Source: an uncultured Acidobacteriaceae bacterium (GTDB taxonomy: Bacteria; Acidobacteriota; Terriglobia; Terriglobales; Acidobacteriaceae). Taken from it: a stretch of DNA of 64,000 bases. The DNA is taken from assembly GCA_963819035.1 (NCBI GenBank), contig CAWFUU010000017.1, positions 140,030 to 204,029 of the forward strand. The letters run 5' to 3'. Below, in pieces: positions 3,940-45,481 of the stretch (positions within the stretch are counted from its first letter, which is position 1; each line of letters starts with the position of its first letter). The position numbers and the translations under genes are program-made. Under the pieces are notes generated by a model. The model saw only the letters and a list, made by a program, of their open reading frames with translations, had not been told where the DNA came from and did no database searches.

Positions 3940-3953
3940 AAAAGGCCGAATCC

Positions 3954-17345: not shown

Positions 17346-17452
17346 CGCGAAAGTCCCAATAACAACGTCAACGAGTGCTACGCCAATATTGTCGCCGTTT
17401 CCCCGCTCCGCCAGTTACGTCATGACCTACGGATCCGGACTTCTAGCAGAAA

Positions 17453-17475
17453 GGGCCACGGTTTGCCCGTAGCCC
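17453..17475. terminator. Hairpin between convergent genes (hypothetical + and pnp -)
   Basis: gggccacgg-tttgc-ccgtagccc: 9-bp stem with 1 mismatch. On the reverse strand it is followed by tttctgc. Confidence 0.45.
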
Positions 17476-17515
17476 CTTCTTGGTCTGATCCGTGCGAATC
17501 CGCGAAGATCCGTGG

Positions 17516-19960
17516 CTAGTGCCGTCCGCCGCCACCACCGTGTCCGCCGTGTCCGCCACGTCCGCCATCGCGCCCGCCACCGCGTCCGCCGCGTCCACGA
17601 CCGCGTCCGCCGCCTCCGGGACGCCCGCCGCCGCGTCCACCGCGATCACCGGTCCGTGGCCGATCGCCTGCGCCTGCGCCGGCGCTTACGTGCGGCGCGC
17701 CTTCGCGGTTAAAGTTGGGTTCGGCATCGGGCTCATCCGGAAAATCCCCGCCGCCTTCGATGACGACCGTGCCCGCCGGAACCGGCTCTCCCTCCGCCAC
17801 CGGCGCCTGGGCTGGAGCCTCGGCAACGGCCCCACCGCCCATCTTCGCCCGCTGCTCTTTCAGAATCGCTTTGCGTGAGAGGCGGATGCGGTTGCCTTCG
17901 ACGGCCAGCACCTTCACCAGTACCTGGTCGCCTTCTTTCAACTCATCGCGCACATCGGCAATGCGATGCTCCGCCACTTCGCTGATGTGCAGCAACCCGT
18001 CGGTCCCCGGCAGAATTTCGACGAACGCGCCGAAATCCGCCAGCCGCGTGACTTTGCCGAGGTAAGTCTTCCCGACCTCCGCCGTCGCCGTGATATCGCC
18101 GATCAGTTGCAGTGCCTTAGCAGCCGACGTCTGATCGCTCGACGCCACCTTGACCAGTCCGGAATCTTCCACGTCGATCTTCACTCCGGTCTGCTCGACG
18201 ATGCTGCGGATCATCTTCCCGCCCGGCCCAATCAGATCGCGAATCTTGTCGACCGGGATCTGCACCGTATAGAAGCGCGGAGCGTAATCGGAAATCTTCT
18301 CGCGCCCGGATGTAATCACTTCATCCATCTTGCCCAGGATGTGCAGCCGTCCACGCTGCGCCTGCGCCAGCGCCTCACGCATGATCTGCGCCGTAATGCC
18401 GGCGACTTTGATATCCATCTGCAGCGCCGTGATGCCATCCTTGGTCCCGGCAACCTTAAAGTCCATGTCGCCATAGTGATCTTCCGCTCCAGCAATGTCG
18501 GTCAGGATGGCATACTGCTCGCCCTCCTTCACCAGCCCCATCGCCACTCCCGCAACCGGAGCCTTCAACGGAACGCCCGCATCCATCAGGGCAATCGAAG
18601 CCCCGCAAACGGTAGCCATCGACGAAGATCCATTCGACTCCAGAATGTCAGAGACGACGCGCATGGCATAAGGCCATTTCTCTTCCGTTGGCAACACAGC
18701 CGAAACCGCCCGCTCGGCCAGCGCTCCATGCCCAATCTCACGCCGTCCAGCCCCCCGCAGAAATGCTACTTCTCCCACCGAAAACGGCGGAAAATTATAG
18801 TGCAGCATGAAGCGCTTTTTGGCTTCACCTTCGAAACCTTCGAGGCGCTGCATGTCGTCGCTGGTGCCGAGGGTGGTGGTGACCAGCGCTTGGGTTTCAC
18901 CGCGGGTGAAGATGGCGCTGCCGTGGGTGCGGGGCAGGACTCCGGCTTCGATCCAGATTTCGCGCACTTCGTCGAAGGCGCGGGCGTCGGGGCGGCGCTT
19001 GTGATTGATCACTTGCTCGCGGAAGATGCGTTCGCGGAGAGTCTCATAGTAGTGATCCAGTTTCTTCTTCGCTGCTTCGTCGTCTTTTTCACTTTCCGTC
19101 TTGGGAAGCTCGGCGGCGAGTTTCTTTTTGATGTCCTTGACCAGGGTGTAGCTTTCGGCCTTGGGATGTTTCTTGGTATCGAGGGCGTCGGAAAGTTCGG
19201 CTCCGATTTTGGTTTTGAGCGAGTTGTAGTACGCTTCGTCGAACGCAGGTGGCTCGACTTGCCGCTTAGGCTTGCCGACTTTGGCGCGGAGGTCGTTAAT
19301 CGCGGCGCAGATTTTCTTGATCTCGGTGTGCCCGAACTCGATGGCGTCGACGACGGTTTCTTCCTTCACTTCCTTCGCGCCGGATTCGATCATCACGATG
19401 CCGTCAGCCGTGCCGACCACCATGATGTTGACCAAGCTCTCGCGCATCTCGTTGTAAGTAGGGTTCACCAGGAACGCGCCGTTCACCAAACCGACGCGGA
19501 CTGCGCCGATGGGACCGAGGAAGGGAATATCGGAAAGAGTCAACGCACAGGAAGCGGCATTGATGCCGAGCACGTCGGGATCATTATCGGTATCGGCGGA
19601 GAGAACGAAAGCGATGACCTGGGTCTCGCACTTGAATCCCTCAGCAAACATGGGCCGGACGGGGCGGTCGATCTGGCGACTGGTGAGCACTTCGCGCTCG
19701 CTCATGCGGCCTTCGCGCTTGATGAAGCCGCCGGGGAAGCGTCCGCCGGCATAGGTGTACTCGCGATAGTCGACGGTGAGAGGGAAGAAGTCGATGCCTT
19801 CGCGGGGATCGGCGTTGGCGACGGCAGTGGCGAGAACAACGTTTTCGCCCAGGCGGACCACGGCTGCTCCGTGCGCCTGCTTGGCGAGCTTTCCGGTTTC
19901 AAATGAAATTTGTTTGCCGCCGGTGAGGTTTACGGTAATGCTTGTCGGTTCTGGTTTCAT
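17516..19960 (-). CDS. pnp: Polynucleotide phosphorylase with a ~108-aa Gly/Arg-rich C-terminal extension
   Basis: 814 aa with two RNase PH domains, KH and S1 (GKVTRLADFGAFVEILPGTDGLLHISE). The tail ends RGGRGGGRPGGGGRGRGRGGRGGGRDGGRGGHGGHGGGGGRH. Confidence 0.95.
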   Translation of the reverse strand: MKPEPTSITVNLTGGKQISFETGKLAKQAHGAAVVRLGENVVLATAVANADPREGIDFFPLTVDYREYTYAGGRFPGGFIKREGRMSEREVLTSRQIDRPVRPMFAEGFKCETQVIAFVLSADTDNDPDVLGINAASCALTLSDIPFLGPIGAVRVGLVNGAFLVNPTYNEMRESLVNIMVVGTADGIVMIESGAKEVKEETVVDAIEFGHTEIKKICAAINDLRAKVGKPKRQVEPPAFDEAYYNSLKTKIGAELSDALDTKKHPKAESYTLVKDIKKKLAAELPKTESEKDDEAAKKKLDHYYETLRERIFREQVINHKRRPDARAFDEVREIWIEAGVLPRTHGSAIFTRGETQALVTTTLGTSDDMQRLEGFEGEAKKRFMLHYNFPPFSVGEVAFLRGAGRREIGHGALAERAVSAVLPTEEKWPYAMRVVSDILESNGSSSMATVCGASIALMDAGVPLKAPVAGVAMGLVKEGEQYAILTDIAGAEDHYGDMDFKVAGTKDGITALQMDIKVAGITAQIMREALAQAQRGRLHILGKMDEVITSGREKISDYAPRFYTVQIPVDKIRDLIGPGGKMIRSIVEQTGVKIDVEDSGLVKVASSDQTSAAKALQLIGDITATAEVGKTYLGKVTRLADFGAFVEILPGTDGLLHISEVAEHRIADVRDELKEGDQVLVKVLAVEGNRIRLSRKAILKEQRAKMGGGAVAEAPAQAPVAEGEPVPAGTVVIEGGGDFPDEPDAEPNFNREGAPHVSAGAGAGDRPRTGDRGGRGGGRPGGGGRGRGRGGRGGGRDGGRGGHGGHGGGGGRH

Positions 19961-20023
19961 ATAGCTTCTAGCTCCTAGCTGCTAGCTTCTAGCTCTTGGC
20001 TATTGGCCTTTGGCTCTTGGCTC
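19961..20023. repeat. Nine tandem heptamers directly upstream of the pnp start codon
   Basis: Read on the pnp strand: GAGCCAA GAGCCAA AGGCCAA TAGCCAA GAGCTAG AAGCTAG CAGCTAG GAGCTAG AAGCTAT then ATG. Confidence 0.9.
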
Positions 20024-20068
20024 ATACGGCTAGGTGCAACTCCTTTTTTTGATTTGTATGGAAATCGA

Positions 20069-20143
20069 TTGTGGAGCGGGCACTTCTGCCCGCTTGCTGG
20101 CAGCATCGAAAGGGCCAGCGGGCAGGAGTGCCCGCTCCACACA
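20069..20143. repeat. REPIN-like doublet: two inverted REP hairpins forming a ~24-bp stem in the rpsO-pnp spacer
   Basis: Left arm tgtggAGCGGGCActtcTGCCCGCT (20069-20094). Right arm AGCGGGCAggagTGCCCGCTccaca (20117-20143). The arms are reverse complements (1 G-U position), and each arm is itself an 8-bp hairpin. Confidence 0.8.
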
Positions 20144-20425
20144 CGCGGGCTGAGGGCCGCTTCGCATCCTGCAGAAATAAGGCCGCAAGCGTCCCGGCAC
20201 TCGCCTGGAGGGAGAATGGGGCTTGCGTTACGTGACGCACGTGAAGAGGATTTCTCAATGCTGACGTCTCTCACCGAGACTGTTTCAGAAATATCCTGGG
20301 ACGATTCAGGTGCCCCATCCTCCAGCGTGTCAGGCCAACCCTGATCGCGTTCGCTGTTTCGAGGACGGGGAATTTGATTAGGCTCCCAGCAATTGCCGCC
20401 GCCGGAAGCTAGACCCCAGGTGCGA

Positions 20426-20692
20426 TTACTTGCGGATACCGAGCTTGGTGATCACGGACTTGTAGCGCTCGGAATCGTATTTCTTGAGGTAGTCGAGCAA
20501 GCGACGCCGCTTGCTGACCAGCATGAGAAGCCCGCGGCGCGAGCCGTGGTCTTTCTGGTGCGTCTTGAAGTGCTCCGTCAACTGGCCAATGCGTTCGCTG
20601 AGCAGCGCGATCTGAACTTCCGGACTCCCGGTGTCGGTCGCGTGCGTGCGATGCGTGTCAATTACGGATTGCTTTTGCTCTCTGGCTAACAC
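20426..20692 (-). CDS. rpsO: 30S ribosomal protein S15
   Basis: 88 aa, GTG start. [50 protein letters not shown]. Confidence 0.95.
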
Positions 20693-20748
20693 TAGCCTGA
20701 TGTGCTCCTGTCTTTAATCGATTGTCTATGTGACTCTTAGAGAATATC

Positions 20749-21042
20749 ATGGAGCCGGAAAACACCGCAATGAACATCGAAATTCGAGACTCCGCCCTGC
20801 AAGCACGGATTCAGAAGCAACTTGAAGCAACAGGCTCGGGAAGCGTGGAGGAGTTGCTTGCTCACTTACTGGAGACCCAAGAGGAACAGGATCGGTGGCT
20901 TCTGGAAAACCGGGAGGAGATCGATGCCAAAATTCGCCGCGGAATCGCGCAGCTTGACCGGGGCGAAGGCATTCCAGAAGACCAATGGGATGCCTATCTG
21001 AAGGCTCGCAAAAACAAGTCGGACTCCCCGGCGCTCCCATAG
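20749..21042 (+). CDS. ParD-like (RHH) type II antitoxin, orphan
   Basis: Pattern SGSVEELLAHLLETQEE...IDAKIRRGIAQLDRGEGIPED resembles ParD/COG3609 antitoxins. No intact toxin ORF follows. The start is ATG 20749 or 20770. Confidence 0.5.
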   Translation: MEPENTAMNIEIRDSALQARIQKQLEATGSGSVEELLAHLLETQEEQDRWLLENREEIDAKIRRGIAQLDRGEGIPEDQWDAYLKARKNKSDSPALP

Positions 21043-21212
21043 CATAGCGGGCAGAAGACCATCACTTTTGCAACGACGTGAGCCGGTGGCCCGGTTCGAA
21101 CACCCGCCAGAAAAACTGGGGAAGGTCCAGTCTGTCCCCGGGTTTCTCTTTAGCATCGTCAGAGAAATGTGTGGTCACTGATGCGTTCGAATGGCGGCCG
21201 GAAGTTGGGCTC

Positions 21213-21227
21213 GAGGGTGCCCCGTCC
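21213..21227. repeat. Solo copy of the GAGGGTGCCCCGTCC terminal motif of the 143-bp repeat
   Basis: The same 15-mer begins the elements at 23430 and 24548. A 13-nt version occurs at 8194-8206. Confidence 0.6.
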
Positions 21228-21287
21228 GTTCCAATGTGAGCCGTCAATGTCGTTGCGCCCTCCCCCTGCCTTTGGTATCTTGCGGTC

Positions 21288-22136
21288 GTGGACCTCCACG
21301 TTAATGCCAGCGACTTACAGCAGGAACTGGAGCAACTGCGGTCGGAGAACGCCCGGCTCAGGCAGGAAATAATTGAAAGTCGCAAGGACAGCACCCGGTA
21401 TCTCCAGAACGTGGCACACCAGCTCACTGCGCCCTTAAACGCCATTAAGTGGAACATCGAGGCGATCAAGGACGAGAAAATCCCGATCCCGCGCAAGAAG
21501 AACCTGCTTAGTTCCATCTACTCCCAGGGGACGATACTTGTTCACCTGATTAAGAACTTCAGCCTAATGTCCAATCTCGAAGCCGACCACGAGCTGGGAC
21601 AGTTCCGGGAAAAACCCGAGCGTGTGAGCCCGCTCCGCCTCGCCATAAATCTCGCGGGGGACTTTCAGCCTCAAGCTGCGGAGACCAGTAAGAAGATAGA
21701 TGTTGACATAGATTCGTTTGACAAGATTTTCGCCAGCAAACCGCTATTGGTAGTCAAGAATCTCGTTGCCCAGGCCCTCTCGAATCTCCTAGAGAACGCC
21801 ATCAAGTACTCCGACATCGGAACCACAATCAGAGTGCTGGCTGCCCAGGGGACGATAAGGGAGCGTAAGGCGATTTACCGCGGGATAGCGGTGATCAATA
21901 CTGGGCTTCCGGTGCTGCTCGACGAAGCGAAAAAACTTTCAGATCGAGGCTTCCGCGGCAAAGCGGCGCGGCAAAAGATCCCGGCGGGAACCGGAATTGG
22001 TCTCTATATCGCAAACAGGATCATGGAACTTCACGAGGGGCTAATCGTGGTCAAGCCTGACGGCAGCGAGACGCGAATAACTCTATTCTTCCCCGAGTTA
22101 CGTGTAGTCGAGCCGGCCGGCGTCGAGGAAGAATGA
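21288..22136 (+). CDS. Soluble, sensor-less histidine kinase (coiled coil + HisKA + HATPase_c)
   Basis: About 45 aa of coiled coil (LQQELEQLRSENARLRQEIIE), then H-box NVAHQLTAPLNAI, N-box LSNLLENAIKYS, SDRGFRG and GTGIGLYIANRIMELHEG. No TM segment or recognisable input domain. GTG start. Confidence 0.8.
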   Translation: MDLHVNASDLQQELEQLRSENARLRQEIIESRKDSTRYLQNVAHQLTAPLNAIKWNIEAIKDEKIPIPRKKNLLSSIYSQGTILVHLIKNFSLMSNLEADHELGQFREKPERVSPLRLAINLAGDFQPQAAETSKKIDVDIDSFDKIFASKPLLVVKNLVAQALSNLLENAIKYSDIGTTIRVLAAQGTIRERKAIYRGIAVINTGLPVLLDEAKKLSDRGFRGKAARQKIPAGTGIGLYIANRIMELHEGLIVVKPDGSETRITLFFPELRVVEPAGVEEE

Positions 22137-22547
22137 CAATCTTGCTAGTAGACGACGAGCCGAGCTATGTGGACGCGCTAAGTTGCCACGCTTGAATCCA
22201 ACGGAATCAAGTGCATCACGGCGAAGAATATGACCGAGGGGGTGAAGGTGCTGGAAACGCAGTATGCCGACGTGGCAGCAGTTGTCACGGACATAATGAT
22301 GCCGCCCGGCCCTTCTTTCTCGCACGTCAATGCCGACGAATGCGGTTTCGAATTCATAGAGCACGTGCAGCAGAACTGGCCGCGACTACCGATCGTTTGT
22401 CTTTCAGTAATTGCCGATCAAGCTAGGATACGCTTTCTCGCAAGACGAAGGGTTAAGTACCTTAGAAAGGGAGAAACCCCACTTTCCACGGCGGTCGAAG
22501 TGATTACCGCCGTCGCCGAAGGAAGAACAGGACGGCTGAGGTTTTGA
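22133..22547 (+). CDS. Stand-alone response-regulator receiver domain; frame broken near 22180
   Basis: ATG 22133 overlaps the kinase stop (ATGA) and gives MTILLVDDEPSYVDALS, then a stop. The +1 frame continues ATLESNGIKCITAKNMTEGVKVLETQYADVAAVVTDIMMP...VCLSV...YLRKG (ORF 22230-22547). All receiver signature residues are present. Confidence 0.65.
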
Positions 22548-23387
22548 ATGCGGGTTCTAATTGTCGAGGACGACCAGTTCTACTCCCAACGAATTCGGGA
22601 ACTTCTCATGGATCACGGAGTTGATTCCACGATCGTGGGGAGTGCGCAAGAGGCAGTTGTTTTCGATCTAGCTCAGATCGACGCCGCTGTGGTCGACATT
22701 ATGCTGCCGAACGACCCGGGTGCATCGAGCATCACCGCGCAGGAGAGTAGGGGCGGCTTTATGACGGGCGTTGCCATAGCGCGGAGACTTCAAAAGAAGA
22801 AGTCTTCACTTCGGATTGTGATGCTGTCGTCCGACGTGACCAATATTGAGGCCGAGAACTGGGCCTCGCAGCAATCTATCCCCTTCATCCCCAAACATAC
22901 AGGAAGTGACGCGCTGTTAGGCGCGCTGCGTAAGCTGGCGATCATTTCGGGCCCACGAGCGCCACTCGCGTTCATAGTGCACGGTCACGACTCAGCCTCT
23001 GTTTTGGAGCTGAAGAACTACATACAGAACATACTTCACTGGCAGGAGCCTGTTGTTCTTCGGGAGCAGCCCAGCCTAGGGAAGACTCTCATCGAAAAGT
23101 TTGAGACGTTCGCACGCAAAGTCGACTGTGTTTTCGTCCTGCTCACGCCAGACGACAACGTCGTCCCGAGCGGCACCGATGATGAAAAGAGGCGCTCCCG
23201 TCAAAACGTCATTTTCGAGCTTGGCTTTTTTTACGCCTCCCTAGAGCGAAGGTCGGGGCGTGTACTCCTGCTGCACAAGGGAGAGCTCGAACTACCCTCG
23301 GACATATCGGGAATTGTCTGGATCGACATCAGCGGCGGAATAACAGCAGCGGGCGAGGATATCCGGAAAGAAGTGGCCGACGTGTGA
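22548..23387 (+). CDS. Response-regulator receiver fused to a CAP12/PycTIR-type TIR-like effector domain (PF10137/COG4271-like)
   Basis: ATG directly abuts the upstream TGA. Receiver motifs are VLIVEDD, AAVVDIMLP, VMLSS and FIPKH. The C-terminal half carries AFIVHGHD, VVLREQPSLGKTLIEKFE, VFVLLTPDD, SRQNVIFELGFF and ELPSDISGIVW, which are the hallmark blocks of the TIR-like family. Confidence 0.8.
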   Translation: MRVLIVEDDQFYSQRIRELLMDHGVDSTIVGSAQEAVVFDLAQIDAAVVDIMLPNDPGASSITAQESRGGFMTGVAIARRLQKKKSSLRIVMLSSDVTNIEAENWASQQSIPFIPKHTGSDALLGALRKLAIISGPRAPLAFIVHGHDSASVLELKNYIQNILHWQEPVVLREQPSLGKTLIEKFETFARKVDCVFVLLTPDDNVVPSGTDDEKRRSRQNVIFELGFFYASLERRSGRVLLLHKGELELPSDISGIVWIDISGGITAAGEDIRKEVADV

Positions 23388-23429
23388 ACGGGCAGCGGCG
23401 GGTGGCCCATGCTAGCCATCCCTGCTGTT

Positions 23430-23572
23430 GAGGGTGCCCCGTCCAAGCTTCGCTTGGGTGGGGATTTTGATCCGCATCGGGTCTGTGGCTGTGGCCGGAT
23501 TCGGAGAAGGAGTCAGAGGAAGTCAGAATCCCCACCCTATCCGCAAAGAACACGGATAAGGATGGGGCACCC
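23430..23572 (+). repeat. 143-bp MITE-like structured repeat, copy A
   Basis: 138/143 identical to 24548-24690. Terminal inverted repeat GGGTGCCCCGTCC...GGATGGGGCACCC, with internal complementary blocks GGGTGGGGA/TCCCCACCC and TATCCG/CGGATA. Confidence 0.85.
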
Positions 23573-23627
23573 AGCTCTATCAGAAAAGAACGCAGAGAAG
23601 ATGGGGAACCGGGCTCGTCCATGCCAA

Positions 23628-23681
23628 CTGCGGCCCGATACACCTGGGCCGCCGGACAGCCGGGGGCGGCTGTCCCTACAT
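23628..23681 (+). repeat. ~55-bp repeat ending in a REP hairpin (partner at 28656-28712)
   Basis: ctgcggcccgatacacctgggccgccGGACAGCCgggggcGGCTGTCCctacat is nearly identical to 28656-28712. Confidence 0.8.
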
Positions 23682-23732
23682 TGAGGTGGGTGGCCCATCC
23701 GAAAATCCACCCTAACTGAAAAGTTCGCGGCG

Positions 23733-24419
23733 TCAGGAATCTTCGTCTTCGTCCTTCATCGCGCTCTTGAATCCGCCGATCATGCCTTCCCGGAAGGCCT
23801 TCAGCATCTTAAGCAGGCGGAATTCCACTTTGGTGACGGTGCCTCCCCGCGTGTCGGACTTCTCATACGACCAGAACATTGCCTTCAGCTTCTTCGACAC
23901 AGTGCGCCCTTCCTTCGTCTTCTGCGTGAAGCTCGTCGGTACCAGGCCCACTACGGAGATAAGCACTCCACCAGCCAGAATCTCCAACGGATCTTCGATC
24001 AGCCCTTTCCTAAGCAGTGATTTATATGACGATTCGGCGGCCGCGACGAGTTGGTCCGTAGTGGTATTCAGTCGCAGGTTAAGAACCGCCTGTCCCAGCG
24101 CATCCGGATAAGGAAGAGATCCATGCGACGCCTTGGTTTCTTTCTCATATTCGGTTCGGGGAAACTCTTGGTAGAACTCTTTGATCTTAGGGTTCTTCCC
24201 AACTGCCGCCCGAACAACGTCCGCGACATCGATGTGTGGATGATATTCCGCCACATGCGCCAGCAGAGTGCCCCAGACGTAAGCCTCTTTTGTAGTGACC
24301 GTCACCGCCCAGTTCGCGGAATCGACCTTGCCCTTTGGATCGTTCGACAGTTCGAGGACCGCCATGTCCGCCAGGCTCATGCGCGTGAGCTTCCTCATAA
24401 CTGCCTTCTTCGCTCTCAT
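23733..24419 (-). CDS. Hypothetical protein (229 aa), no recognisable family
   Basis: C-terminal part of ORF 23733-25082. Start placed at ATG 24419 (MRAKKAVMRKL), 6 nt after GGAG. Non-repetitive with lower GC. The portion upstream of 24419 runs through repeat copy B and is low-complexity. Confidence 0.6.
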   Translation of the reverse strand: MRAKKAVMRKLTRMSLADMAVLELSNDPKGKVDSANWAVTVTTKEAYVWGTLLAHVAEYHPHIDVADVVRAAVGKNPKIKEFYQEFPRTEYEKETKASHGSLPYPDALGQAVLNLRLNTTTDQLVAAAESSYKSLLRKGLIEDPLEILAGGVLISVVGLVPTSFTQKTKEGRTVSKKLKAMFWSYEKSDTRGGTVTKVEFRLLKMLKAFREGMIGGFKSAMKDEDEDS

Positions 24420-24547
24420 ATGGAACTCCTGTGCGGAATGTCCCGCAGTGGGAAATATTATTCCCGCCCACACTGGAAGGTGAAGAAGATCGCAAAATCG
24501 TTTCTCGGGTGCGGCGTGGCCCATCCCCGAAGGCCATTCTTGGTCTT

Positions 24548-24690
24548 GAGGGTGCCCCGTCCAAGCTTCGCTTGGGTGGGGGTTTTGATCCGGATCGGGT
24601 CTGTGGCTGCGGCTGGATTCGGAGAAGGAGTCAGAGGAAGTCAGAATCCCCACCCTATCCGCAAAGAACGCGGATAAGGATGGGGCACCC
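24548..24690 (+). repeat. 143-bp MITE-like structured repeat, copy B
   Basis: Direct-orientation copy of 23430-23572 with 5 mismatches. Confidence 0.85.
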
Positions 24691-24750
24691 GCACGGTGGG
24701 AGAAAACAGATTCCTCCCTTTGGTCGGAATGACAAGACCCTTGATTTTCG

Positions 24751-25334
24751 TTATCGCGGGCGGCGGAGGAGGTGCCAGGCTTGGCGGTACTGGTCGTAGA
24801 GGCCGGGGCGGTGGTCCTTTTTCCTGCGGAACAGGAGGCTGGTGCCGCGGACGGCTCGGACGGGGATGATGTACCAGGTGTCTTCGGGGATGATGTAGGC
24901 GGCGATGAAGTCGATTTCGCTGGAGAGGTAGGGGACGGCGCGCCCTCCGCTGCGGTGGTGGCCGTTGATGCGGTAGAGGCCGTTGAGGAGTTGGGTGGAA
25001 CATTTGACCTGGACGCGGTAGAGAGGCGGACAGGGGATGCGCGCCAAGCGCGCGTTCTTGCCTGGCAAAGAACGCGAGGCATCGCGCGGCACGCCCAGGT
25101 ACCTTCGGCTCCGCCTCAGGGCAGGCTCTTCGTCGGGCAAGGCGCGCTCCTCAGGATGACGAGGTTTGTGGGTGAGGTCGCGGGCGTCGAGGATGAAGTC
25201 GTAGCGTTCGCTGTCGCCGTAGGGTTTGGAGACGCCGAAGCCAAGGCGGGTGGCGATGAGGAGGAGGACGAGTTCGGCGAGCTCGCCGCGGCGCTTGGTG
25301 TTGCGTTCCCGGCGGAGGGAATGGACTGGCGGGA
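24751..25334 (-). pseudogene. PD-(D/E)XK endonuclease (group I intron-associated type, PDDEXK_5-like), start codon missing
   Basis: Reverse-strand frame reads ...SLRRERNTKRRGELAELVLLLIATRLGFGVSKPYGDSERYDFILD...RVQVKC...SEIDFIAAYIIPEDTWYIIPV...YRQAWHLL. No ATG/GTG/TTG lies between the upstream stop (25378-25380) and NTKRRGE. A palindromic insert (cgcgttctttgccaggcaagaacgcg) precedes RVQVK. Confidence 0.6.
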
Positions 25335-25340
25335 CAGTTC

Positions 25341-25892
25341 TTGCATCCCGCTCCCGGCGATCTGCTCCATCTCGACATCAAGGGCATGACCCGCTATCAG
25401 CAGGTCTCCATTCGCGGCGACGGTCGTCGCCGCGGTCGCCCTCAGTTCGCTGGCTGGCAGGCTCTGCACGTCGCCATCGACGATCACTCCCGCCTCGCCT
25501 TCTCCCGCATGCTGCCCAATCAGCAAAGCGAAACCGCCATCGCCTTCCTGCGCGCCGCCGTCGCCTTCTACGCCCTGCACGGCATCTCCATTCGCCGCCT
25601 GCTCACCGATAACGGCTCCTGCTATCGCTCCCGACAGTTCCGCGCCGCCTGCCTTCAACTCGGCATCCAGCACCGCTTCACCCGTCCCTACACTCCGCGC
25701 ACCAACGGCAAAGCGGAACGCTTCATCCAAACCGCCCTACGCGAGTGGGCCTATGTTCGCCACTACCTCAACTCGGAGGAACGCGATCAGCAGCTCTCGC
25801 CTTGGCTGGAGCATTACAACTTCCACCGTCCGCATGGTAGTCTCGGTTACGCTCCGCCCATTAGCCGGGCTCCCGTGGGTATAACGTCTTGA
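25341..25892 (+). mobile_element. IS481-family (rve/DDE) transposase fragment lacking the N-terminal HTH third
   Basis: PGDLLHLDIKGM...WQALHVAIDDHSRLAF...LTDNGSCYRS...RPYTPRTNGKAERFIQTALREWAY...HYNFHRPHGSLGYAPPISR. Homology begins abruptly at about 25335. No N-terminal part is present in any frame. Confidence 0.75.
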
Positions 25893-26238
25893 TAGATCAC
25901 AGGCACCCAGCTTCCATGAAAAGAGGCGGTCGGCGCTTCGTCACTTTTCCACAGCCTTCCACAGCAAAAAAGCTGATTCCTGTGACGAACAACCTTTACT
26001 GAGAAATGTGGAAAACGCACACTAGCCTCATGCGCGTAGGCCTCCAAAACAAGTTCGGCGTCGGCTCCGCCCTGAACCTGCCGGAACGCGCAGCTAACCC
26101 CTTATCCCGCAATATTTTACCTCTAAGTCCTTGCGCCTCAAGATTTTGCCCGGATCCAGCCCGATCCATGCCCCGTAACCAATTGAGCCCGAGGATTTTA
26201 GCTCAAAGGGCAAAAAAAAATTGATCTGGATATCCCTC

Positions 26239-27816
26239 CTACTTCAGCAGCCCGTAGACTTCGACTTCGCCTCGGGCGGCGAAGTAGACGCGGCCGTTCA
26301 CGACGAGCGGGAAGACGAAGCGCGTGGCCAGGGCGGCGCGGTCGCGCTGGCTGTTCTGTTCCGAGGTGTAGATCGGTTGGTCGAGCCGCGTGGCGTCGAA
26401 GGCGTAGAGGACTGCCGGTTTGTTGTCGGGGCCGTTCCAGGTCTTGGTCGCGATGGCCCAGACGATCGCGTTCTTGTTGCCGTCGGCGGAGACCGAAGGC
26501 GTGGCTCCCGGATCTGCGAACTTCATGATGGAAGATGTATGCAGCGTGAGTTCGCCATTCTTAACCGCGTAGTCGCGAAGGTGATCATTATTGGCGGCGA
26601 AGAAGACGTGGCCGTTCCAGTAGGCGAGGGCGCCGAGGCCACCGCCAGACATGCGAATCAACTCGACCAGCGCGTCGCCGTCGCGACGAAACTTGCCCAT
26701 GTTGTCCCGGTCCATCACATAGATCGTCGAGTCTTTCGTGGGCTGTAGCAGCAGATGACGATGCGGGCCAGGCTGGTCGGGCAGCAGAAGAGGCCCGCTG
26801 GAGCCGACATCAGAATCGGCTTCGCTGATGCGATCCTGATCGTGCGGCGTGAAGTAATCGCGGATCGCGAGCGACGAAGAGGAGCCGTCGAGCGCCAGCT
26901 TCAGAACCGAGTCGCCATAGTCACGGCCGCCAGATCCGGCGTCGAACGTGCCGTTCCCGGTTGGGACGTAGAGGTTGCCGTCGGCATCGGCGGCGGGCCC
27001 GGTGTCGCTCAACCATATGCCGGCTTCGCCTCCGTCAGGTGTGACATTCAGGACCGCACGCTGGGCCAGCGTTTGCGGATCATACGCCATCACCCAACCG
27101 TGGTAAGGGTCCACGTCGCAGGACGACGCCCATTCGAGATAAAGGACGCCGTTGGCAAGCGTGAGCGCTGCCCGCGGATTTTCTTTCAGCGGATCGAAAG
27201 CCACTTGTCCATTGGCGGCTCCGGCACCCTTGCCCGGCACCGCGGCGGAGATGAGTTTGGGGCCTCCGAACTTTTCGACTCCGGTGGTGATGGCGAGGGC
27301 GTGCAGATGCTGGGAATATTCGTTGGCGCCGACTGCGTGTTTGATCCGGGTGCGAGCGAGCACAAAGAGGGTCCCGGTCTTGAGATCAATCACCGGCGTG
27401 GAAGTGATGCCGACTTCGGGGCGGATGAACGGACACTGTGCGTCGTCTTCAGAGACGGGGATGACACCGCGTGCTTTATCGAGAAAGCTAACCTGCCAGA
27501 GCGGAGGGTCGCCGGGACGATTGGCGTCGAAGGCGTAAACGCTGTCGTGCTCGGTCGCGACGTAGAGGACGTCGTGCGTTCCTTTGCCCGGGACGTCGAC
27601 GGTGGGGAGATATAGAGGTTGCGCGTAGACCGCGCCGTCGACTTTGAACGCGCCAAGTTTGCCGAATTGTTTAGTATTTACGTTCTGCGGCGTGAGGATT
27701 TTTTCGTGGAGCGTGGCGCCCGTGCGGGAATTGTCGTATTGCGACGTGGTGACTTGGGCGAAGGCAGGAATCGCCACGAGTACGATGATTGCAGCAATAC
27801 GACAGGACGAGTTCAT
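26239..27816 (-). CDS. Secreted PQQ-like/BamB-like beta-propeller repeat protein
   Basis: Signal peptide MNSSCRIAAIIVLVAIPAFAQ (ATG 27816). VTTSQYDNSRTGA, DGAVYAQPLY, ATEHDSVYAFDA, and repeated propeller blades. Confidence 0.75.
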   Translation of the reverse strand: MNSSCRIAAIIVLVAIPAFAQVTTSQYDNSRTGATLHEKILTPQNVNTKQFGKLGAFKVDGAVYAQPLYLPTVDVPGKGTHDVLYVATEHDSVYAFDANRPGDPPLWQVSFLDKARGVIPVSEDDAQCPFIRPEVGITSTPVIDLKTGTLFVLARTRIKHAVGANEYSQHLHALAITTGVEKFGGPKLISAAVPGKGAGAANGQVAFDPLKENPRAALTLANGVLYLEWASSCDVDPYHGWVMAYDPQTLAQRAVLNVTPDGGEAGIWLSDTGPAADADGNLYVPTGNGTFDAGSGGRDYGDSVLKLALDGSSSSLAIRDYFTPHDQDRISEADSDVGSSGPLLLPDQPGPHRHLLLQPTKDSTIYVMDRDNMGKFRRDGDALVELIRMSGGGLGALAYWNGHVFFAANNDHLRDYAVKNGELTLHTSSIMKFADPGATPSVSADGNKNAIVWAIATKTWNGPDNKPAVLYAFDATRLDQPIYTSEQNSQRDRAALATRFVFPLVVNGRVYFAARGEVEVYGLLK

Positions 27817-27921
27817 GGTGTTTCCCCCAAAGACAGGTTTTGTAAGGGGCCCAGAGAATTTCCGATGCGAGTTCCGATTGACGCGTTGTGTTGGAAGACG
27901 ACGCACTTCTGGCAGGGATAA

Positions 27922-27954
27922 GCCCCATTCTCGCGAAAAGTGCGAGAATGGGGC
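27922..27954. terminator. Perfect 13-bp hairpin downstream of the 27982-28458 gene
   Basis: gccccattctcgc-gaaaagt-gcgagaatggggc. No strong U tract, so it may be a repeat-family hairpin instead. Confidence 0.4.
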
Positions 27955-27981
27955 GCCCCGGCCAACAACGACAGAGTCTAG

Positions 27982-28458
27982 TTAACGCTTCTGAACTCTC
28001 ACCAGCTGCCACGGGTGGTCTGCGACGGGCGTATCAAATAGCTTGAGTTCGGCCTTGTCGGACTCCGTTTGCTTGAGTTCAAAACTGGAGGACGTACCAT
28101 CCGGCCGTTTTGCTCCCTTAAACGACAGGATGTTCTGTTGCGCGCTGGCGTCGCTGATTTTTTGCGCATGCTCTGGCACCGGAGGGTCCGAGACAGATAC
28201 GCATGCTCCGTTGTGATCGCCGCCCATGTTTCCAATACTGATGGTGCCTTCGAGTTGAGATCCGGTTAGGTGGAGAACGATCACAACGAAAGGTGCTCCG
28301 TCCTGACATTTTCCTTCCCAAGTGCCGGCGAATCTGTCGAGGGAATCTCCGCCTTTCTTGGTGTCAAGGGTTGATTTTTCTTGAGCAGCGGCGGGCTGCA
28401 GGAACGCGAATGCCAACGACAATACGAAAATCATTTGATGGGTGAGGGCCTTGGTCAT
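27982..28458 (-). CDS. Secreted hypothetical protein
   Basis: AAGGAG precedes ATG 28458. Signal peptide MTKALTHQMIFVLSLAFAFLQPAAA. Confidence 0.6.
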   Translation of the reverse strand: MTKALTHQMIFVLSLAFAFLQPAAAQEKSTLDTKKGGDSLDRFAGTWEGKCQDGAPFVVIVLHLTGSQLEGTISIGNMGGDHNGACVSVSDPPVPEHAQKISDASAQQNILSFKGAKRPDGTSSSFELKQTESDKAELKLFDTPVADHPWQLVRVQKR

Positions 28459-28655
28459 AGATAGCTCCTTGGGGCCTTCTGTTGAATGCCCCGGTGATCT
28501 TGCAGGCGACAGAAGGCCCAATATCCCGGCCCTCAGCAAGACGTGACGAGATCCTGCAAGAGCGGCCAGGTGATTTCTTTGGAGGTCTTAGACACCGGGT
28601 AAGTATGAGACGTTCCAGGAGATTCGTCTCGTCTACGAAAGCGGGGTCCACAGAG

Positions 28656-28712
28656 CTGCGGCCCGATACACCTGGGCCGCCGGACAGCCGAGGGCGGCGG
28701 CTGTCCCTACAT
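28656..28712 (+). repeat. ~55-bp repeat ending in a REP hairpin (partner at 23628-23681)
   Basis: ctgcggcccgatacacctgggccgccGGACAGCCgagggcggcGGCTGTCCctacat. Confidence 0.8.
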
Positions 28713-28717
28713 GAGCG

Positions 28718-30862
28718 CTACTGCTGGGAGCCTTGCTTTTCTGCCGGCTTATCTGCGGGCTTGGCGAAGAGTTTGGGATCGACTGCGGGGTTGAGTTCGA
28801 TCTTTTTGAATTCGGCGTTGCTGGTCTGCTGACCGTTTTGTTTGTTCTGGTGCTGGTAGGGCATGGTGAGGCCTTCGGCAGTGCGCCAGTTGGAAAGATC
28901 AGTTTCGCCGTCGAAGGGGCCGGATTGTCCGACGCCTTTGTATTTTTCGCGGAGGATGTGACCGGTTTTGGGGTCAATGTACCAGCGGACCCAGGGGATG
29001 GCGCCGCCGATGTCGAGAATTGCGGCATCGACGTCGCCGACTTTTTCAGTGCCAGCGGCCGCAAATGAAAAAGCGGGATCGTCGGCGTGCTGCGCGACGT
29101 AGACGAGATCGTGGTGAAGTTGGGCGAGCATCTCGTTTTTTTGCGCGGGGGGCATGGCGCGCGTGCCCATGCCGGCCACGGACATGAAAGCGTCATCGGG
29201 CGAGGCCACGATGGTCAGTTTGCCTTGGGGTATGTCCATGTCGACGCGCATGGTGTCAGGGAAGGCGAGGATAACGTCGACAGCGGAAGAAGGACCGCCG
29301 GAGTCGCTCTCGGCGATGTTGACGTGCATGGCCTTGATGGATTGCAGTTTGGGCAGGCCTCCCATGGCGGCAGCGACTTTGGCGGCTAGCGCGTTGCCCT
29401 CGGGATTGGAAGCGGTGGGCTTGGCTTCGTCCTTGGCCGCGGGCGGCGCCGGGATGGTGATGTCGATTTCTTTCACGGAGCCAAGCGACGAGAGCGGCTT
29501 GTCGAACTCCTTGGTGTTGCCCACCACCAGCACGGCGAGTTGATCTTTGTGCATGTACTTGGTGGCGACGCGGTTCACGTCGGCGGCCGTCACTTTCTTG
29601 ATTTCCGACTGATACTTGTCGAGCCAGTCGGGAGGATAGCCGTAGTACTCGTAGGTCATGCGCTCGCCGAGAATCTTGTCGGGGGAGTCGAGGCGGAAGA
29701 TGAAGGCGTTGAGGATGGCGTCTTTGGCGCGCTGAATCTCTTCGTCGGTGATGGGCTGCTTGGCAAGATTGTCGATATCTTCGCCGACCGCTTGCACGGC
29801 TTCGATGGTGCTTTGGCTCTTGGTGCCCATGGCGACCTGAAGAATGCCGGGATGGCCGAAATTGGTGCCCACGCCACCGCCCACGCCGTAGGCGAGTCCG
29901 CGTTTGGTGCGGATGTCGTTGAAGAGGCGCGAGGAGAATCCGCCGCCGAAGGCCTCGTTGAAAACGCTGATGGCGTAGTAGTCGGGATTGTCGCGGGTGG
30001 TGCCGAGCGCGACCATGCGGATGTTCGACTGGTTTACGTCGTCTTTCGGAATCAGGTAATAGCCGGGCTTGGCGGGGGAGTATTGAACGTCATTCTTCGG
30101 AAGGGTTGGGCCTTTGGGCCAGGACTCGAATGTCGCGCGCAGGCGGGCTTCCATGGCGGCGGAGTCGAAGTCTCCACTGATGCCGAGGATGATGTTGTTG
30201 GGATGGACGTATTTGGCGTGCCAATCGAGAAGATCCTGACGCGTGACGGCGCTGACCGTGGAGTATTCGGCGATGCGGGCGTAAGGATTATCGGCGCCGT
30301 AAGCCAGCTTGACGGCTTCACGGTGAGCGATTTCGCCGACCTGGTCGTTGCGACGGGAGATGCCGTCAAAAGCTTCTTTTTGGGCGAGGTCGAGTTTGTC
30401 GGCGCGAAACTCGGGATTCTGCAGCAAGTCGGTGAAAGCTTTGAAAACGTCGTCGAGGTCAGCCTTGAGGCAGGAGAAGTTCACCGTGGTGGAGTCGGGG
30501 CCGCCAGCGGTTTCGACTTTGGCAGCGCGGACTTCGAGGAAGTCGTCGAGTTGATCGCCGGTCTGCGACTTGGTGCCGCCGGTGCGCCAGACTTCGCCGT
30601 AGAGGTCGACGAGGCCGGTCTTTTCGGCGGGTTCGTTGACCGAGCCGCCGCGAATGCGCGCGGTAGCGTCGATCAGGGGCAACTCGTGATCTTCCTGAAG
30701 GAAGATCACCATGCCGTTCGAGAGTTCGATGCGCTTGGGCTGCTGCGGTTTAAATGCGGGCAGCGGAGGGATGGGGATTTGCTTCCAGGTCGTGGTTTGG
30801 GCTGAGGTCTGCCCTTGGAAAACGAAGCACAACACCGCATGTAGAATGGCGGCGGAAATCAT
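28718..30862 (-). CDS. M16-family peptidase, non-catalytic type, with a ~250-aa LolA-like C-terminal extension
   Basis: M16 fold without HxxEH (GLVDLYGEVWRTGGT sits at that position). Start placed at ATG 30862 (MISAAILHAVLCFVFQGQTSA) because the 5' end of ORF 28718-30973 is encoded by a REP hairpin. Confidence 0.75.
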   Translation of the reverse strand: MISAAILHAVLCFVFQGQTSAQTTTWKQIPIPPLPAFKPQQPKRIELSNGMVIFLQEDHELPLIDATARIRGGSVNEPAEKTGLVDLYGEVWRTGGTKSQTGDQLDDFLEVRAAKVETAGGPDSTTVNFSCLKADLDDVFKAFTDLLQNPEFRADKLDLAQKEAFDGISRRNDQVGEIAHREAVKLAYGADNPYARIAEYSTVSAVTRQDLLDWHAKYVHPNNIILGISGDFDSAAMEARLRATFESWPKGPTLPKNDVQYSPAKPGYYLIPKDDVNQSNIRMVALGTTRDNPDYYAISVFNEAFGGGFSSRLFNDIRTKRGLAYGVGGGVGTNFGHPGILQVAMGTKSQSTIEAVQAVGEDIDNLAKQPITDEEIQRAKDAILNAFIFRLDSPDKILGERMTYEYYGYPPDWLDKYQSEIKKVTAADVNRVATKYMHKDQLAVLVVGNTKEFDKPLSSLGSVKEIDITIPAPPAAKDEAKPTASNPEGNALAAKVAAAMGGLPKLQSIKAMHVNIAESDSGGPSSAVDVILAFPDTMRVDMDIPQGKLTIVASPDDAFMSVAGMGTRAMPPAQKNEMLAQLHHDLVYVAQHADDPAFSFAAAGTEKVGDVDAAILDIGGAIPWVRWYIDPKTGHILREKYKGVGQSGPFDGETDLSNWRTAEGLTMPYQHQNKQNGQQTSNAEFKKIELNPAVDPKLFAKPADKPAEKQGSQQ

Positions 30863-30919
30863 AGGCAATGCTCTCTGTAACCAGCTGCGACCGAGGGTGC
30901 CGTCGAGCTTCGCTCGACC

Positions 30920-30946
30920 GGACGGCCGGAGGCGGCCGTCCCCACA
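30920..30946. repeat. REP-like hairpin in the spacer between the two M16 genes
   Basis: GGACGGCC-ggaggc-GGCCGTCC followed by CCACA. Confidence 0.7.
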
Positions 30947-30969
30947 TAGGTTTTTCTGCCAGCGGGTTT

Positions 30970-32520
30970 TCATTGCGCACCTCCCTCGTTGCCGGAGTCG
31001 CTTGACGGCTGGTCGCCGCCGGGAGACCCGCCGCCTCCCGTTTCGATAATGCCGATGGTGCGATTGGTGTCGACGAAAATTTCGTTGGCGATGCGGCGGA
31101 TGTCGGCTTTGGTCACCTGGTCGATGCGGTCGACGGAGCGGAAGAGTTCACGCCAATCGCCGTAGCGGGTCTGATAGGTGGCGAGTTGTGTGGCCAGGCC
31201 CTCGTTGTCAGCGAGGCCGCGAATCAGGTTGGCCTTGCTGCGGGTCTTAATCATTTTTAATTCGTCGTCGGAGATGTCTTCTTTTTTCAGGCGATCGATT
31301 TCCGCGTGGATGGCGTCGCCAACCTCCTGCGGGGTGTGGCCGGGCATGGGAAAGGCGTAGAAAGCGAACAGGTGCGGATACTTGATGGCGGGCCAACCGC
31401 TGAAGCCTGCGGAAGAGGCGGCGATCTTTTTGTCGCGCACCAGAGCGCGATAGAGGCGAGAGGTGCGGCCTTCGGCCAGGAGGTCCGTGATGGCGTCGAA
31501 GACAGCGTCGTCTTTGCTGCGATAGTCGGGGCGGTGATAGCCCTCGATGTAAAGCGGCTGGGATCGGTCTTTGAGGACGACCCTTCGCTCGGAGTTCTGT
31601 GGAGGCTCGGTGGTGGTTTCCTCGTCGGGGTGCGGCCGGGTGGGCAGGCGTCCGAAATATTTTTCGAGGATCGGCATGGTCTGGGCGGTTTTCACATCGC
31701 CGGCGACGGCTACGACCATGTTCGACGGCACGTAGTACTTATCGAAGAATTTCTGGGCGTCGGTGGCAGAGAAATGGTTGAGGTCGGAGATCCAGCCGAC
31801 GGTGGGGCGGTGATAGGGATGCGCGACGAAGGCGGCCTCGGTGAACTGCTCGAGCAGGCGGCCGATGGGATTGCTGTCGGTACGCATTCGGCGTTCTTCA
31901 ATCACGACGTTGCGTTCCTTGTAGAACTCGCGCAGGACCGGATGCAGAAAGCGCTCCGACTCCAGATAAGCCCATAGTTCGAGGCGGTTTTCGGGGAGGG
32001 AGTAGTGGTATCCGGTCTCGTCGAAGGAGGTGAAGGCGTTCATGTCCTCGCCGCCATTTTGCTCGACGATCTTGCCGAATTCGTTGCCGACGACGAATTT
32101 GTCGGCCTCAGCGATGGCGTCTTTCCAGGCTTTTTCGAGTTGCTTCAACTTGGCTTCGTCGCGGCCGACATTTTTGTCGCGCTCGGCTAAGTAGGCGGCA
32201 TAGGCGGTCTCAACCTTGGCCAGGGCGGGCTTTTCGGCGGCGTAGTTGCTGGTGCCGATTGTGTCGGTGCCCTTGAAGGCCATGTGCTCGAACATGTGGG
32301 CGAGGCCGGTGGCGCCCATCGGATCCTGCACCGAGCCGGCATCGACCAAAGTGAAGAAAGAGAAGACAGGAGCCTCGGGGCGCTCGCAGATCATCAGCGT
32401 CAGGCCATTGGGGAGTTTCTTGACCGTGATGCGCTTTTCGAAGGAGGCGACGTCCTGGGCGGCGGCCGCGGCTGCGAGCAGGAAAAGGATGGCGGCAAGG
32501 TTAAGAGCACGGTGCTTCAT
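30970..32520 (-). CDS. M16-family zinc peptidase (pitrilysin-like), catalytic type
   Basis: HxxEH motif in GLAHMFEHMAFKGT. Signal peptide MKHRALNLAAILFLLAAAAAAQ from ATG 32520, after GGAGGT. Confidence 0.85.
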   Translation of the reverse strand: MKHRALNLAAILFLLAAAAAAQDVASFEKRITVKKLPNGLTLMICERPEAPVFSFFTLVDAGSVQDPMGATGLAHMFEHMAFKGTDTIGTSNYAAEKPALAKVETAYAAYLAERDKNVGRDEAKLKQLEKAWKDAIAEADKFVVGNEFGKIVEQNGGEDMNAFTSFDETGYHYSLPENRLELWAYLESERFLHPVLREFYKERNVVIEERRMRTDSNPIGRLLEQFTEAAFVAHPYHRPTVGWISDLNHFSATDAQKFFDKYYVPSNMVVAVAGDVKTAQTMPILEKYFGRLPTRPHPDEETTTEPPQNSERRVVLKDRSQPLYIEGYHRPDYRSKDDAVFDAITDLLAEGRTSRLYRALVRDKKIAASSAGFSGWPAIKYPHLFAFYAFPMPGHTPQEVGDAIHAEIDRLKKEDISDDELKMIKTRSKANLIRGLADNEGLATQLATYQTRYGDWRELFRSVDRIDQVTKADIRRIANEIFVDTNRTIGIIETGGGGSPGGDQPSSDSGNEGGAQ

Positions 32521-32726
32521 GGGACCTCCGGAGTAGACCGACACGACACGGTTATGTCTTGGACGGACATGCAGGGCAGAAGTTTGAAAGTACGTGGGGG
32601 GGAGGCGGGTTGTCAAACGGGCGCGGGAGGCTGGCGGGGGTGACGCTAGCTTTAATCCTGAAACCCTAAAGCGTCTCCCAAAGCGTCTATTCTGTGCAAG
32701 CATAGTGAGACTTTTGAGGAGGGCGA

Positions 32727-33827: not shown

Positions 33828-33838
33828 GGGGAGCACTT

Positions 33839-34861: not shown

Positions 34862-34890
34862 GGACACGAAGGTTCACGAAGGAAAACGCT

Positions 34891-45324: not shown

Positions 45325-45412
45325 GGGCGACCTCGTTGCTTCCAGAGTAATTGCGCCGGCTCGAATCCGGCAAGCGGTAGCGAGGCGACCGAGCTGTCGA
45401 GCGATGCTCGAC

Positions 45413-45438
45413 GGACAGCCGAGGCGGCTGTCTCCACA
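45413..45438. repeat. REP-like hairpin upstream of the metB-like gene
   Basis: GGACAGCC-gaggc-GGCTGTC followed by TCCACA. Confidence 0.7.
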
Positions 45439-45481
45439 TAGCATCGCACCATTTATAATGCCGACTTCAGTCGACTCGTAT

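Follow-up and report, generated by a model that had tools for sequence, protein, structure and literature searches.

Directly upstream of rpsO, the gene for ribosomal protein S15, a 64,000-nt stretch of DNA from an uncultured Acidobacteriaceae bacterium (GCA_963819035.1, contig CAWFUU010000017.1, positions 140,030–204,029 of the forward strand) holds what is likely to be a long-lived variable slot of this genus, filled and eroded in separate events and carrying a cassette that resembles the phage-defence system Detocs. The whole stretch is referred to as the window, and all coordinates are window positions. A preliminary description had taken 20693–26035 for a horizontally acquired, partly eroded defence or mobile island. 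All of the accessory elements it listed were present (an orphan antitoxin; genes for a histidine kinase (HK), a receiver (REC) and a receiver fused to a TIR domain (REC-TIR); two 143-bp repeats; an orphan gene; a PD-(D/E)XK endonuclease; and an IS481-type transposase), and it was right that some are eroded, namely the orphan antitoxin locus, the start-less endonuclease gene and the truncated transposase gene. Because the components have different histories, the region appears to be a mosaic rather than one island. In the layered history shown by sequence comparison, a resident ParDE toxin–antitoxin (TA) pair lost its toxin, a 2.23-kb HK–REC–REC/TIR cassette came recently by horizontal transfer, and 5′ losses from the PDDEXK_5 endonuclease gene and from the IS481 gene, which is missing its 5′ third, mark the break that joins the slot to a block of PQQ-like propeller and M16 peptidase genes.

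To place the slot, we compared the present genome (G000, 6.88 Mb; other G numbers denote relatives and L numbers contig pieces) at the DNA level with 40 relatives, including 24 genomes of the genus, and compared the rpsO-proximal 8–15 kb from 20 relatives. The left anchor is rpsO itself (20426–20692, minus strand), an 88-aa open reading frame (ORF) annotated as Ribosomal_S15 on the homologous contig L075, with pnp downstream of it (17516–19960, minus strand at its 3′ end, 17516–17760). The S15 protein was 84–97% identical in amino acids across all genus relatives, and pnp and rpsO were kept in 24 of 24 genus genomes, with nothing conserved beyond about 60 bp upstream of rpsO. Indeed, rpsO DNA matches in around 20 genus genomes end at about 20752–20759, where a conserved leader of about 60 bp (20693–20752, minus strand) comes to its end. 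The window's gene order upstream of rpsO was common to none of the 20 relatives, which bears out the description of the region as accessory and variable; as in genomic islands, what occupies the site is absent or different in close relatives. In those relatives the slot held PD40 propellers, Ser/Thr kinases, phosphatases, Sel1/TPR proteins and some housekeeping genes. PADLOC matches shown in their slots comprised four 'homing endonuclease' matches on the PDDEXK_5 gene, the rest falling on two members only; as both have Pkinase domains and also fit a kinase model, we read their matches as generic to kinases. Because the relatives' cargo is heterogeneous and mostly non-defence, the slot is hypervariable but not a dedicated defence hotspot, and the term 'defence island', which here would rest on one candidate system, was not borne out.

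Comparison with the closest genome, G041, which was reached via a search with the cassette, indicates that the cassette was recently transferred horizontally and that it is the sole part of the block with a recent-transfer signature. Backbone nucleotide identity between G041 and the window was 85–88% overall, with 88.3% across pnp–rpsO–ParD (17436–21023) and 85–87% across the M16 peptidases and beyond (28658–35600). By contrast, 21178–23407 (plus strand), the 2.23-kb unit that contains the three-gene operon, matched G041 contig C2 at 95.7–98.6% with sharp ends, at a different locus with unrelated flanks. Third-codon identity to G041 was 0.92 for HK, 0.95 for REC and 0.93 for REC-TIR, compared with 0.76 for pnp, 0.70 and 0.69 for the two M16 genes (M16a and M16b) and 0.85–0.88 for ParD/rpsO. 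Such high third-codon identity reflects low divergence and thus argues for recent common ancestry of the cassette rather than constraint. The cassette is single-copy in G000; it was not found at the DNA level in the 24 other genus genomes among the matches listed, and 200 other genomes of the family (142 genera) yielded no full-length homologue, only three matches to the TIR part. Its ends adjoin motifs of the REP (repetitive extragenic palindromic) and MITE (miniature inverted-repeat transposable element) type (GAGGGTGCCCCGTCC at 21213 and GGTGGCC at 23400), and a 154-bp junction segment (21024–21177), with no G041 match on either side, separates it from the ParD remnant.

The ParD/CcdA-like gene next to rpsO (20749–21042, plus strand; 97 aa; CcdA match E 0.006, below the Pfam cut-off) has a different past. 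It was 88% identical in nucleotides and 95% in amino acids to an orthologue in G041 that overlaps and precedes an intact ParE toxin gene (PF05016, E 2e-16), and in this translational coupling the G041 locus resembles ParDE type II TA loci; in the window, unlike such loci, the toxin gene is deleted and the orphan antitoxin has an altered C-terminal tail. Homology to G041 stops at 21023, exactly at the ParD stop and ParE start, and no ParE toxin gene was found in the window or in the whole G000 genome, so that the label of orphan antitoxin is correct. These comparisons indicate that the ParD-like gene was vertically inherited and its toxin partner deleted. The ParE gene beside rpsO-linked ParD is frameshifted in G005 (L019 3415–3701) and truncated in G016 (L011 11801–11989), which indicates that toxin decay at this locus is recurrent across the genus.

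At the other side of the slot lies the PDDEXK_5 endonuclease gene (24751–25338, minus strand; PF11645 E 8.6e-17; PADLOC HEase), a 5′-truncated pseudogene. Orthologues occur 0.45–6 kb from rpsO in seven relatives (G004, G007, G008, G009, G016, G022 and G023), with amino acid identities of around 58–60% in the closest and down to around 42–48%, and the gene has the same orientation near rpsO in seven of eight genomes, the present one counted. It therefore looks like an old resident of the rpsO neighbourhood, and it comes closest to serving as a right-hand anchor. Orthologues have an ATG and about 35–50 more N-terminal residues that are missing from the window copy, in which no start codon was found upstream of the conserved NTKRRGELAEL motif. 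Abutting it is an IS481-family transposase remnant with the rve core only (25341–25908, plus strand; rve ORF 25341–25892; rve and rve_3 matches), which starts at a HPAPGDLLHLDIKG motif and is the only copy in G000. It was 91% identical in nucleotides to a G041 copy that has about 128 further N-terminal residues, including a helix-turn-helix (HTH) domain; lacking these residues and the left end, the fragment falls short of a full IS481 element, in which HTH and rve domains lie between terminal inverted repeats. The two truncated genes meet head to head at 25339–25341, a junction that appears to be the footprint of a deletion associated with an insertion sequence (IS). To its right lies the PQQ-like propeller gene (26239–27906, minus strand). 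In G007, G013, G014 and G017 the propeller and M16 genes adjoin each other yet lie far from pnp–rpsO or on other contigs, which places a synteny break at the PDDEXK_5/IS481 junction. In G041, 7.1 kb of unrelated genes (ParE, DUF1801, DUF4256, SRPBCC, glyoxalase and ArsR-type) fill the interval between the ParD and M16 anchors.

A gene for a 228-aa protein (23733–24419, minus strand) belongs to a rare conserved family, with 18 homologues at 45–83% identity among 5.8 billion proteins. One of these, 71% identical, lies 3.9 kb from rpsO–pnp in the same orientation on soil contigs L075/L076 of a related organism; other members sit near integrases and transposases. At the other loci the neighbours are unrelated, and no conserved upstream partner of the gene was found there. 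The protein had no Pfam or PADLOC match, and an all-helical AlphaFold2 model (AF2; pLDDT 67.5) returned nothing in Foldseek at E < 0.9.

The first gene of the cassette encodes a cytoplasmic HK (21288–22136, plus strand; HisKA E 2.5e-7, HATPase_c E 1.3e-12) in which a short coiled coil is followed by a dimerization and histidine phosphotransfer (DHp) domain with the H-box AHQLTAPL and by a catalytic ATPase domain. The DHp domain is highly conserved (YLQNVAHQLTAPLxAIKW...SIYSQxTILVHLIKNFxLMSNLE), and an alignment of 13 orthologues of 255–290 aa contained no extra, transmembrane or sensor domain. The second gene, REC1 (22133–22547, plus strand), encodes a canonical stand-alone receiver of about 137 aa (135–141 aa in intact orthologues) with the residues DD / D / S / K conserved in the alignment, and is frameshifted. 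Comparison of frames with G041 and L033 defined the lesion: from the ATG at 22133 (MTILLVDDEPSYVDAL...) the frame runs into an extra G near 22183 (GCGCTAAGTTGCC, against GCGCTAATTGCC in G041) and a stop at 22193, and resumes in the +1 frame. A metB-like gene for a pyridoxal-phosphate-dependent enzyme of Cys/Met metabolism is likewise split over two frames in the window (45004–45444 and 44118–45071, minus strand; profile positions 1–60 and 77–381), making assembly indels plausible for this genome. Programmed frameshifting in REC1 was rejected, as the G041 copy and 12 of 12 orthologues are in frame and this housekeeping gene is similarly split.

The third gene (22548–23387, plus strand) encodes a receiver (PF00072, E 8e-9) fused to a PF10137 TIR domain of the CAP12/PycTIR type (E 2.8e-29; 102 bits against a curated cut-off of 24.7), a putative NADase effector that also matched the PADLOC candidate PDC-S35 (E 1.4e-41). 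Across 14 sequences the receiver residues E7, D8, D9, D50 and K116 and the TIR motifs FIVHGHD and RQNVIFELGFF, including E224, were invariant. In an AF2 model (pLDDT 82) the N-terminal half fits receivers and the C-terminal half fits the TIR domain of TIR-STING, with a Foldseek match of this C-terminal domain to the cryo-EM structure 9lmq_B at E 1.9e-4.

A scan of one genome per species identified 12 further complete cassettes, with 47–66% amino acid identity in REC-TIR, in at least six phyla (Acidobacteriota, Dormibacterota, Planctomycetota, Desulfobacterota, Verrucomicrobiota and others). Gene order was identical across the 13 loci, and in most of them HK and REC overlap by 4 bp at the HK stop and REC start. 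When flanking ORFs were clustered all against all, only the three cassette genes were shared, the flanks being unrelated and no fourth conserved gene emerging. REC-TIR matches at E ≤ 1e-10 fell into at least 1,040 clusters at 90% identity; nearly all of the best 120 listed combine REC with PF10137, and these relatives bear generic names only.

This layout recalls Detocs, in which a kinase with a TPR sensor, DtcA, is encoded with a stand-alone receiver, DtcB, and a receiver-effector, DtcC, whose effector is a PNP ATP nucleosidase (bioRxiv 10.1101/2023.01.24.525353). DtcB, whose Asp mutant is toxic, is the proposed phosphate buffer, and defence was shown experimentally to depend on phosphotransfer, with the effector site needed as well as the His and the Asp (Rousset et al., bioRxiv 10.1101/2023.01.24.525353). 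The window's cassette keeps this three-gene order, with REC1 in the position of DtcB; it has the phospho-acceptor His, in an invariant H-box, and Asp, with DD / D / K invariant in both receivers; and it shares with Detocs an extended loop after the receiver D-x-x-LP motif, a modular effector position and a spread across phyla. Unlike DtcA, which has TPRs and its phospho-His at residue 645, the kinase here is around 255–290 aa and without TPR, and the effector is a PF10137 TIR. The effectors given for Detocs are PNP, hydrolase-TM (transmembrane), REase (restriction endonuclease), OLD-like TOPRIM nuclease and 'Unclear', and neither a TIR effector nor Acidobacteria are listed (Table S5 of bioRxiv 10.1101/2023.01.24.525353); kinases and receivers go unmentioned in a 2025 survey of bacterial TIR systems. 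The cassette matched no PADLOC model named for Detocs. With a kinase that lacks TPR, similarity to DtcB and DtcC at the generic receiver level only and a TIR effector, it does not appear to be a Detocs member by the sequence tests run.

The effector itself resembles those of CBASS Cap12, Pycsar PycTIR and PDC-S35, with which it shares the PF10137 TIR-like domain, the FIVHGHD and RQNVIFELGFF motifs and the invariant Glu. Cyclic nucleotides activate the Cap12 and PycTIR effectors through SAVED, cyclic-nucleotide-monophosphate (cNMP)-binding or other sensor domains. The N-terminal regulator here is instead a phosphorylatable receiver paired with a dedicated kinase.

Because the three-part layout and the conserved phospho-sites are those of Detocs, we propose the same logic: by analogy, the cassette is probably a two-component phage-defence system that works as Detocs does. 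A trigger, possibly a phage factor acting on the highly conserved DHp helices, would cause the sensor-less kinase to autophosphorylate on its conserved His; the unusual conservation of these helices is consistent with a kinase that may sense the trigger directly through them. Phosphate would then move to Asp50 of the receiver-TIR protein, whose receivers would dimerize or oligomerize so that the TIR domains assemble as the active NAD+-cleaving form (catalytic Glu224), and depletion of NAD+ would lead to growth arrest. The stand-alone receiver would absorb stray phosphate and so avert self-killing, and the first of two MITE-like repeats may provide the operon's terminator hairpin. We advance tentatively, giving it somewhat less than even weight, the broader proposal that HK–REC–REC/TIR is an undescribed two-component anti-phage branch with a sensor-less kinase, a phospho-gated TIR NADase and a REC buffer, widespread in soil phyla and spreading as a bare three-gene unit.

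The idea that 20693–26035 was acquired as one genomic island inserted beside rpsO and then eroded has in its favour the accessory gene content with an IS remnant, a slightly lower-GC core and a short imperfect direct repeat; it is already largely refuted, and we regard it as very improbable. GC was 59.3% in the window, 58.5% in the genome and 57.4% in the interval itself. Only its left three quarters were lower (20693–24650, 55.6%, the three cassette genes being at 54–55%), and this core ranked at the 8.5th GC and 91st tetranucleotide-distance percentiles among 3,370 4-kb windows of the genome; the PDDEXK_5 gene and IS481 fragment (24751–25908) stood above the genome at 64.9% (98th percentile). 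The fall from 60–65% to 50–55% seen by eye in the preliminary description was thus real on the left, overstated in size and absent from the GC-rich right quarter. Against size-matched random genome segments, the cassette fell at the 9th GC and 70th tetranucleotide-distance percentiles and the variable block as a whole (21024–26238) at an ordinary 29th and 76th, so that GC and k-mer content are not distinct from the host genome as they would be in a compositionally defined island. A deviation does exist, yet it is small and uneven and falls short of significance, and composition alone would not call an island; profiles no different from the surroundings had been named in the preliminary description as the outcome that would speak against one, and this is essentially what was found. 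The short direct repeat, CACTAGCCT(G/C)ATG(T/C)GC (9–16 bp, at 20690 and 26020), was rejected as an island boundary: its right copy lies inside a dispersed repeat family, the motif is absent from the G041 copy, and the likeness is probably due to chance. There is no integrase or tRNA at the region, only the IS481 remnant, and no convincing flanking repeat. A direct join of rpsO to the 26.0–26.2 kb sequence, which the preliminary description had proposed to look for in strains lacking the island, was seen in none of the relatives compared, the nearest to an empty site being rpsO followed by the PDDEXK_5 gene within 0.45 kb (G022) or 1.07 kb (G009). With its conserved rpsO–pnp anchors, species-specific cargo, TA modules, IS remnants and accumulated MITE/REP elements, the site resembles chromosomal integration hotspots; it is unlike these and defence islands in having no tRNA, integrase or att repeats and, in relatives, mostly non-defence cargo (propellers, kinases, phosphatases). 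What survives of the claim of horizontal acquisition is the 2.23-kb cassette, the only segment (21178–23407) to match G041 at 96–99%; ParD, at backbone divergence, PDDEXK_5, a conserved rpsO neighbour in eight genomes, and the 228-aa gene are linked to rpsO in relatives and were not part of one island. The resemblance of these three genes to old slot residents fits a contrary account, in which the region is ancestral, relatives differ by differential loss and the cassette was not transferred but has long resided there, subject to strong purifying selection. That account is very improbable, as purifying selection does not explain third-codon identities of 0.92–0.95 in the cassette against 0.69–0.76 in pnp and the M16 genes, the G041 copy is on another contig with unrelated flanks, and the cassette was not encountered among the DNA matches listed for the other genus genomes or in the 200 family genomes searched. 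Separate filling and erosion of a variable slot remains our preferred reading of the region.

For the cassette, the principal alternative to defence is an ordinary physiological two-component pathway (for example in NAD+ or nucleotide signalling or stress dormancy) or an addiction-type module in which the TIR toxin is freed when kinase signalling is lost; we judge it unlikely, though deserving of serious attention. Several observations weigh against our own account of a recently transferred defence system, and some of these lend support to this alternative. The cassette's defence role is a prediction: most genes flanking the 13 cassette loci are housekeeping genes, known defence genes lying near only some; the kinase has no recognizable sensor domain; and the rpsO slot of relatives is not enriched in defence genes. 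Similarity to DtcB and DtcC appears to be at the generic receiver level only (against DtcC, BLASTP E 0.05 at the receiver N terminus only; against DtcB, an hhalign probability of 94% over the receiver). Both close copies are lesioned in REC, so the system could be one that is being lost rather than used. Of three IS insertions in the G041 copy (L031:947–2337, 3250–4410 and 4692–5875), one, IS481-like, lies upstream of the kinase gene, and two, IS630-like and with TA/CTAG-type target duplications, interrupt the stand-alone receiver gene; repeated hits in this small gene suggest selection to silence the operon; the frameshift in the window may be an assembly indel. No recombinase, target duplication, inverted repeat or att site bounds the cassette, and with no significant compositional anomaly to add to it, the transfer signal comes from comparison with a single close relative. 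What argues against a physiological pathway is the patchy, cross-phylum distribution, driven by horizontal transfer and with unrelated flanks, together with the three-part layout identical to that of Detocs and with PF10137 itself, otherwise known from CBASS Cap12/Pycsar effectors and here accompanied by the match to a PADLOC defence candidate. In addition, some loci adjoin MADS, BREX, PARIS or AbiL genes, the 86 pooled flanking ORFs of the 13 loci giving matches to MADS, BrxA, AriA and AbiL models and to two integrases.

The two MITE/REPIN-like repeats (copy 1, 23415–23572 with a 143-nt core at 23430–23572; copy 2, 24533–24690 with a core at 24548–24690; both plus strand) form a direct repeat and are 94% identical. 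Each core has inverted repeats of 13 bp at its termini and others nested internally, and the cores fold with z scores of about −6 relative to shuffles (−6.0 for copy 2); short, non-coding, bounded by terminal inverted repeats and present in multiple copies, they are of the MITE/REPIN type. Their end modules have around 25 partial matches genome-wide, and the two full copies are those found here. In each, a T-run follows a terminator-like hairpin, which in copy 1 (23437–23463) lies 50 nt past the REC-TIR stop. The genome has more than 40 copies of a second and unrelated REP-type repeat, CTGCGGCCCGATACACCTGGGCCGCCGGACAGCCG.GGGCGGCTGTCCCTACAT; one comes after the first MITE-like copy (23628–23681) and another lies at 28656–28712, where synteny with G041 resumes (28658). 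At the right edge of the slot, before the propeller gene, is a dispersed repeat of about 260–300 bp (25944–26240, plus strand) with at least eight copies in G000 (including C12:213837–214094, C25:8716–8949 and C19:104788–104982) and more in G001, G019 and G041. It comprises conserved blocks (TTTTCCACAGCCTTCCACAG...TGTGACGAACAACCTTTACTGAGAA and GCAGCTAACTCCTTATTCCGCAATATTTTGCC..GCAAGTCCTTGCGGCTCAAGATTTTGCC) on either side of a variable middle that starts at a conserved ATG; it had no Rfam match and may represent a family of small-ORF genes, a regulatory RNA or a MITE.

On the other side of rpsO, the spacer to pnp contains a 28-nt inverted REP doublet (20070–20141) with around 45 related matches genome-wide, and an Rfam scan of 19900–29000 gave only a chance match to a microRNA model, on the REP doublet. 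The 3′ end of pnp (17516–17760, minus strand) encodes a Gly/Arg-rich C-terminal tail of PNPase, with GDRGGRGGGRPGGGGRGRGRGGRGGG... in roughly the last 40 residues; a local GC peak of 70% results from it, and tblastn matches to genus relatives end before this tail.

Judged as an island, the region has little out of the ordinary: it is a variable slot of the typical kind, littered with debris of TA, IS and MITE elements, and it illustrates how poorly composition assessed by eye detects islands whose donor was a close relative. The cargo is a clean natural case of the recent transfer of a bare three-gene kinase/receiver/receiver-TIR unit between two Acidobacteriaceae species, of a module present in at least six phyla. 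If the cassette is a defence system, the principle of Detocs, abortive infection gated by a phosphorelay, would also cover TIR effectors and kinases that lack a recognizable sensor, and phosphorylation would join the known modes of activating bacterial TIR enzymes.

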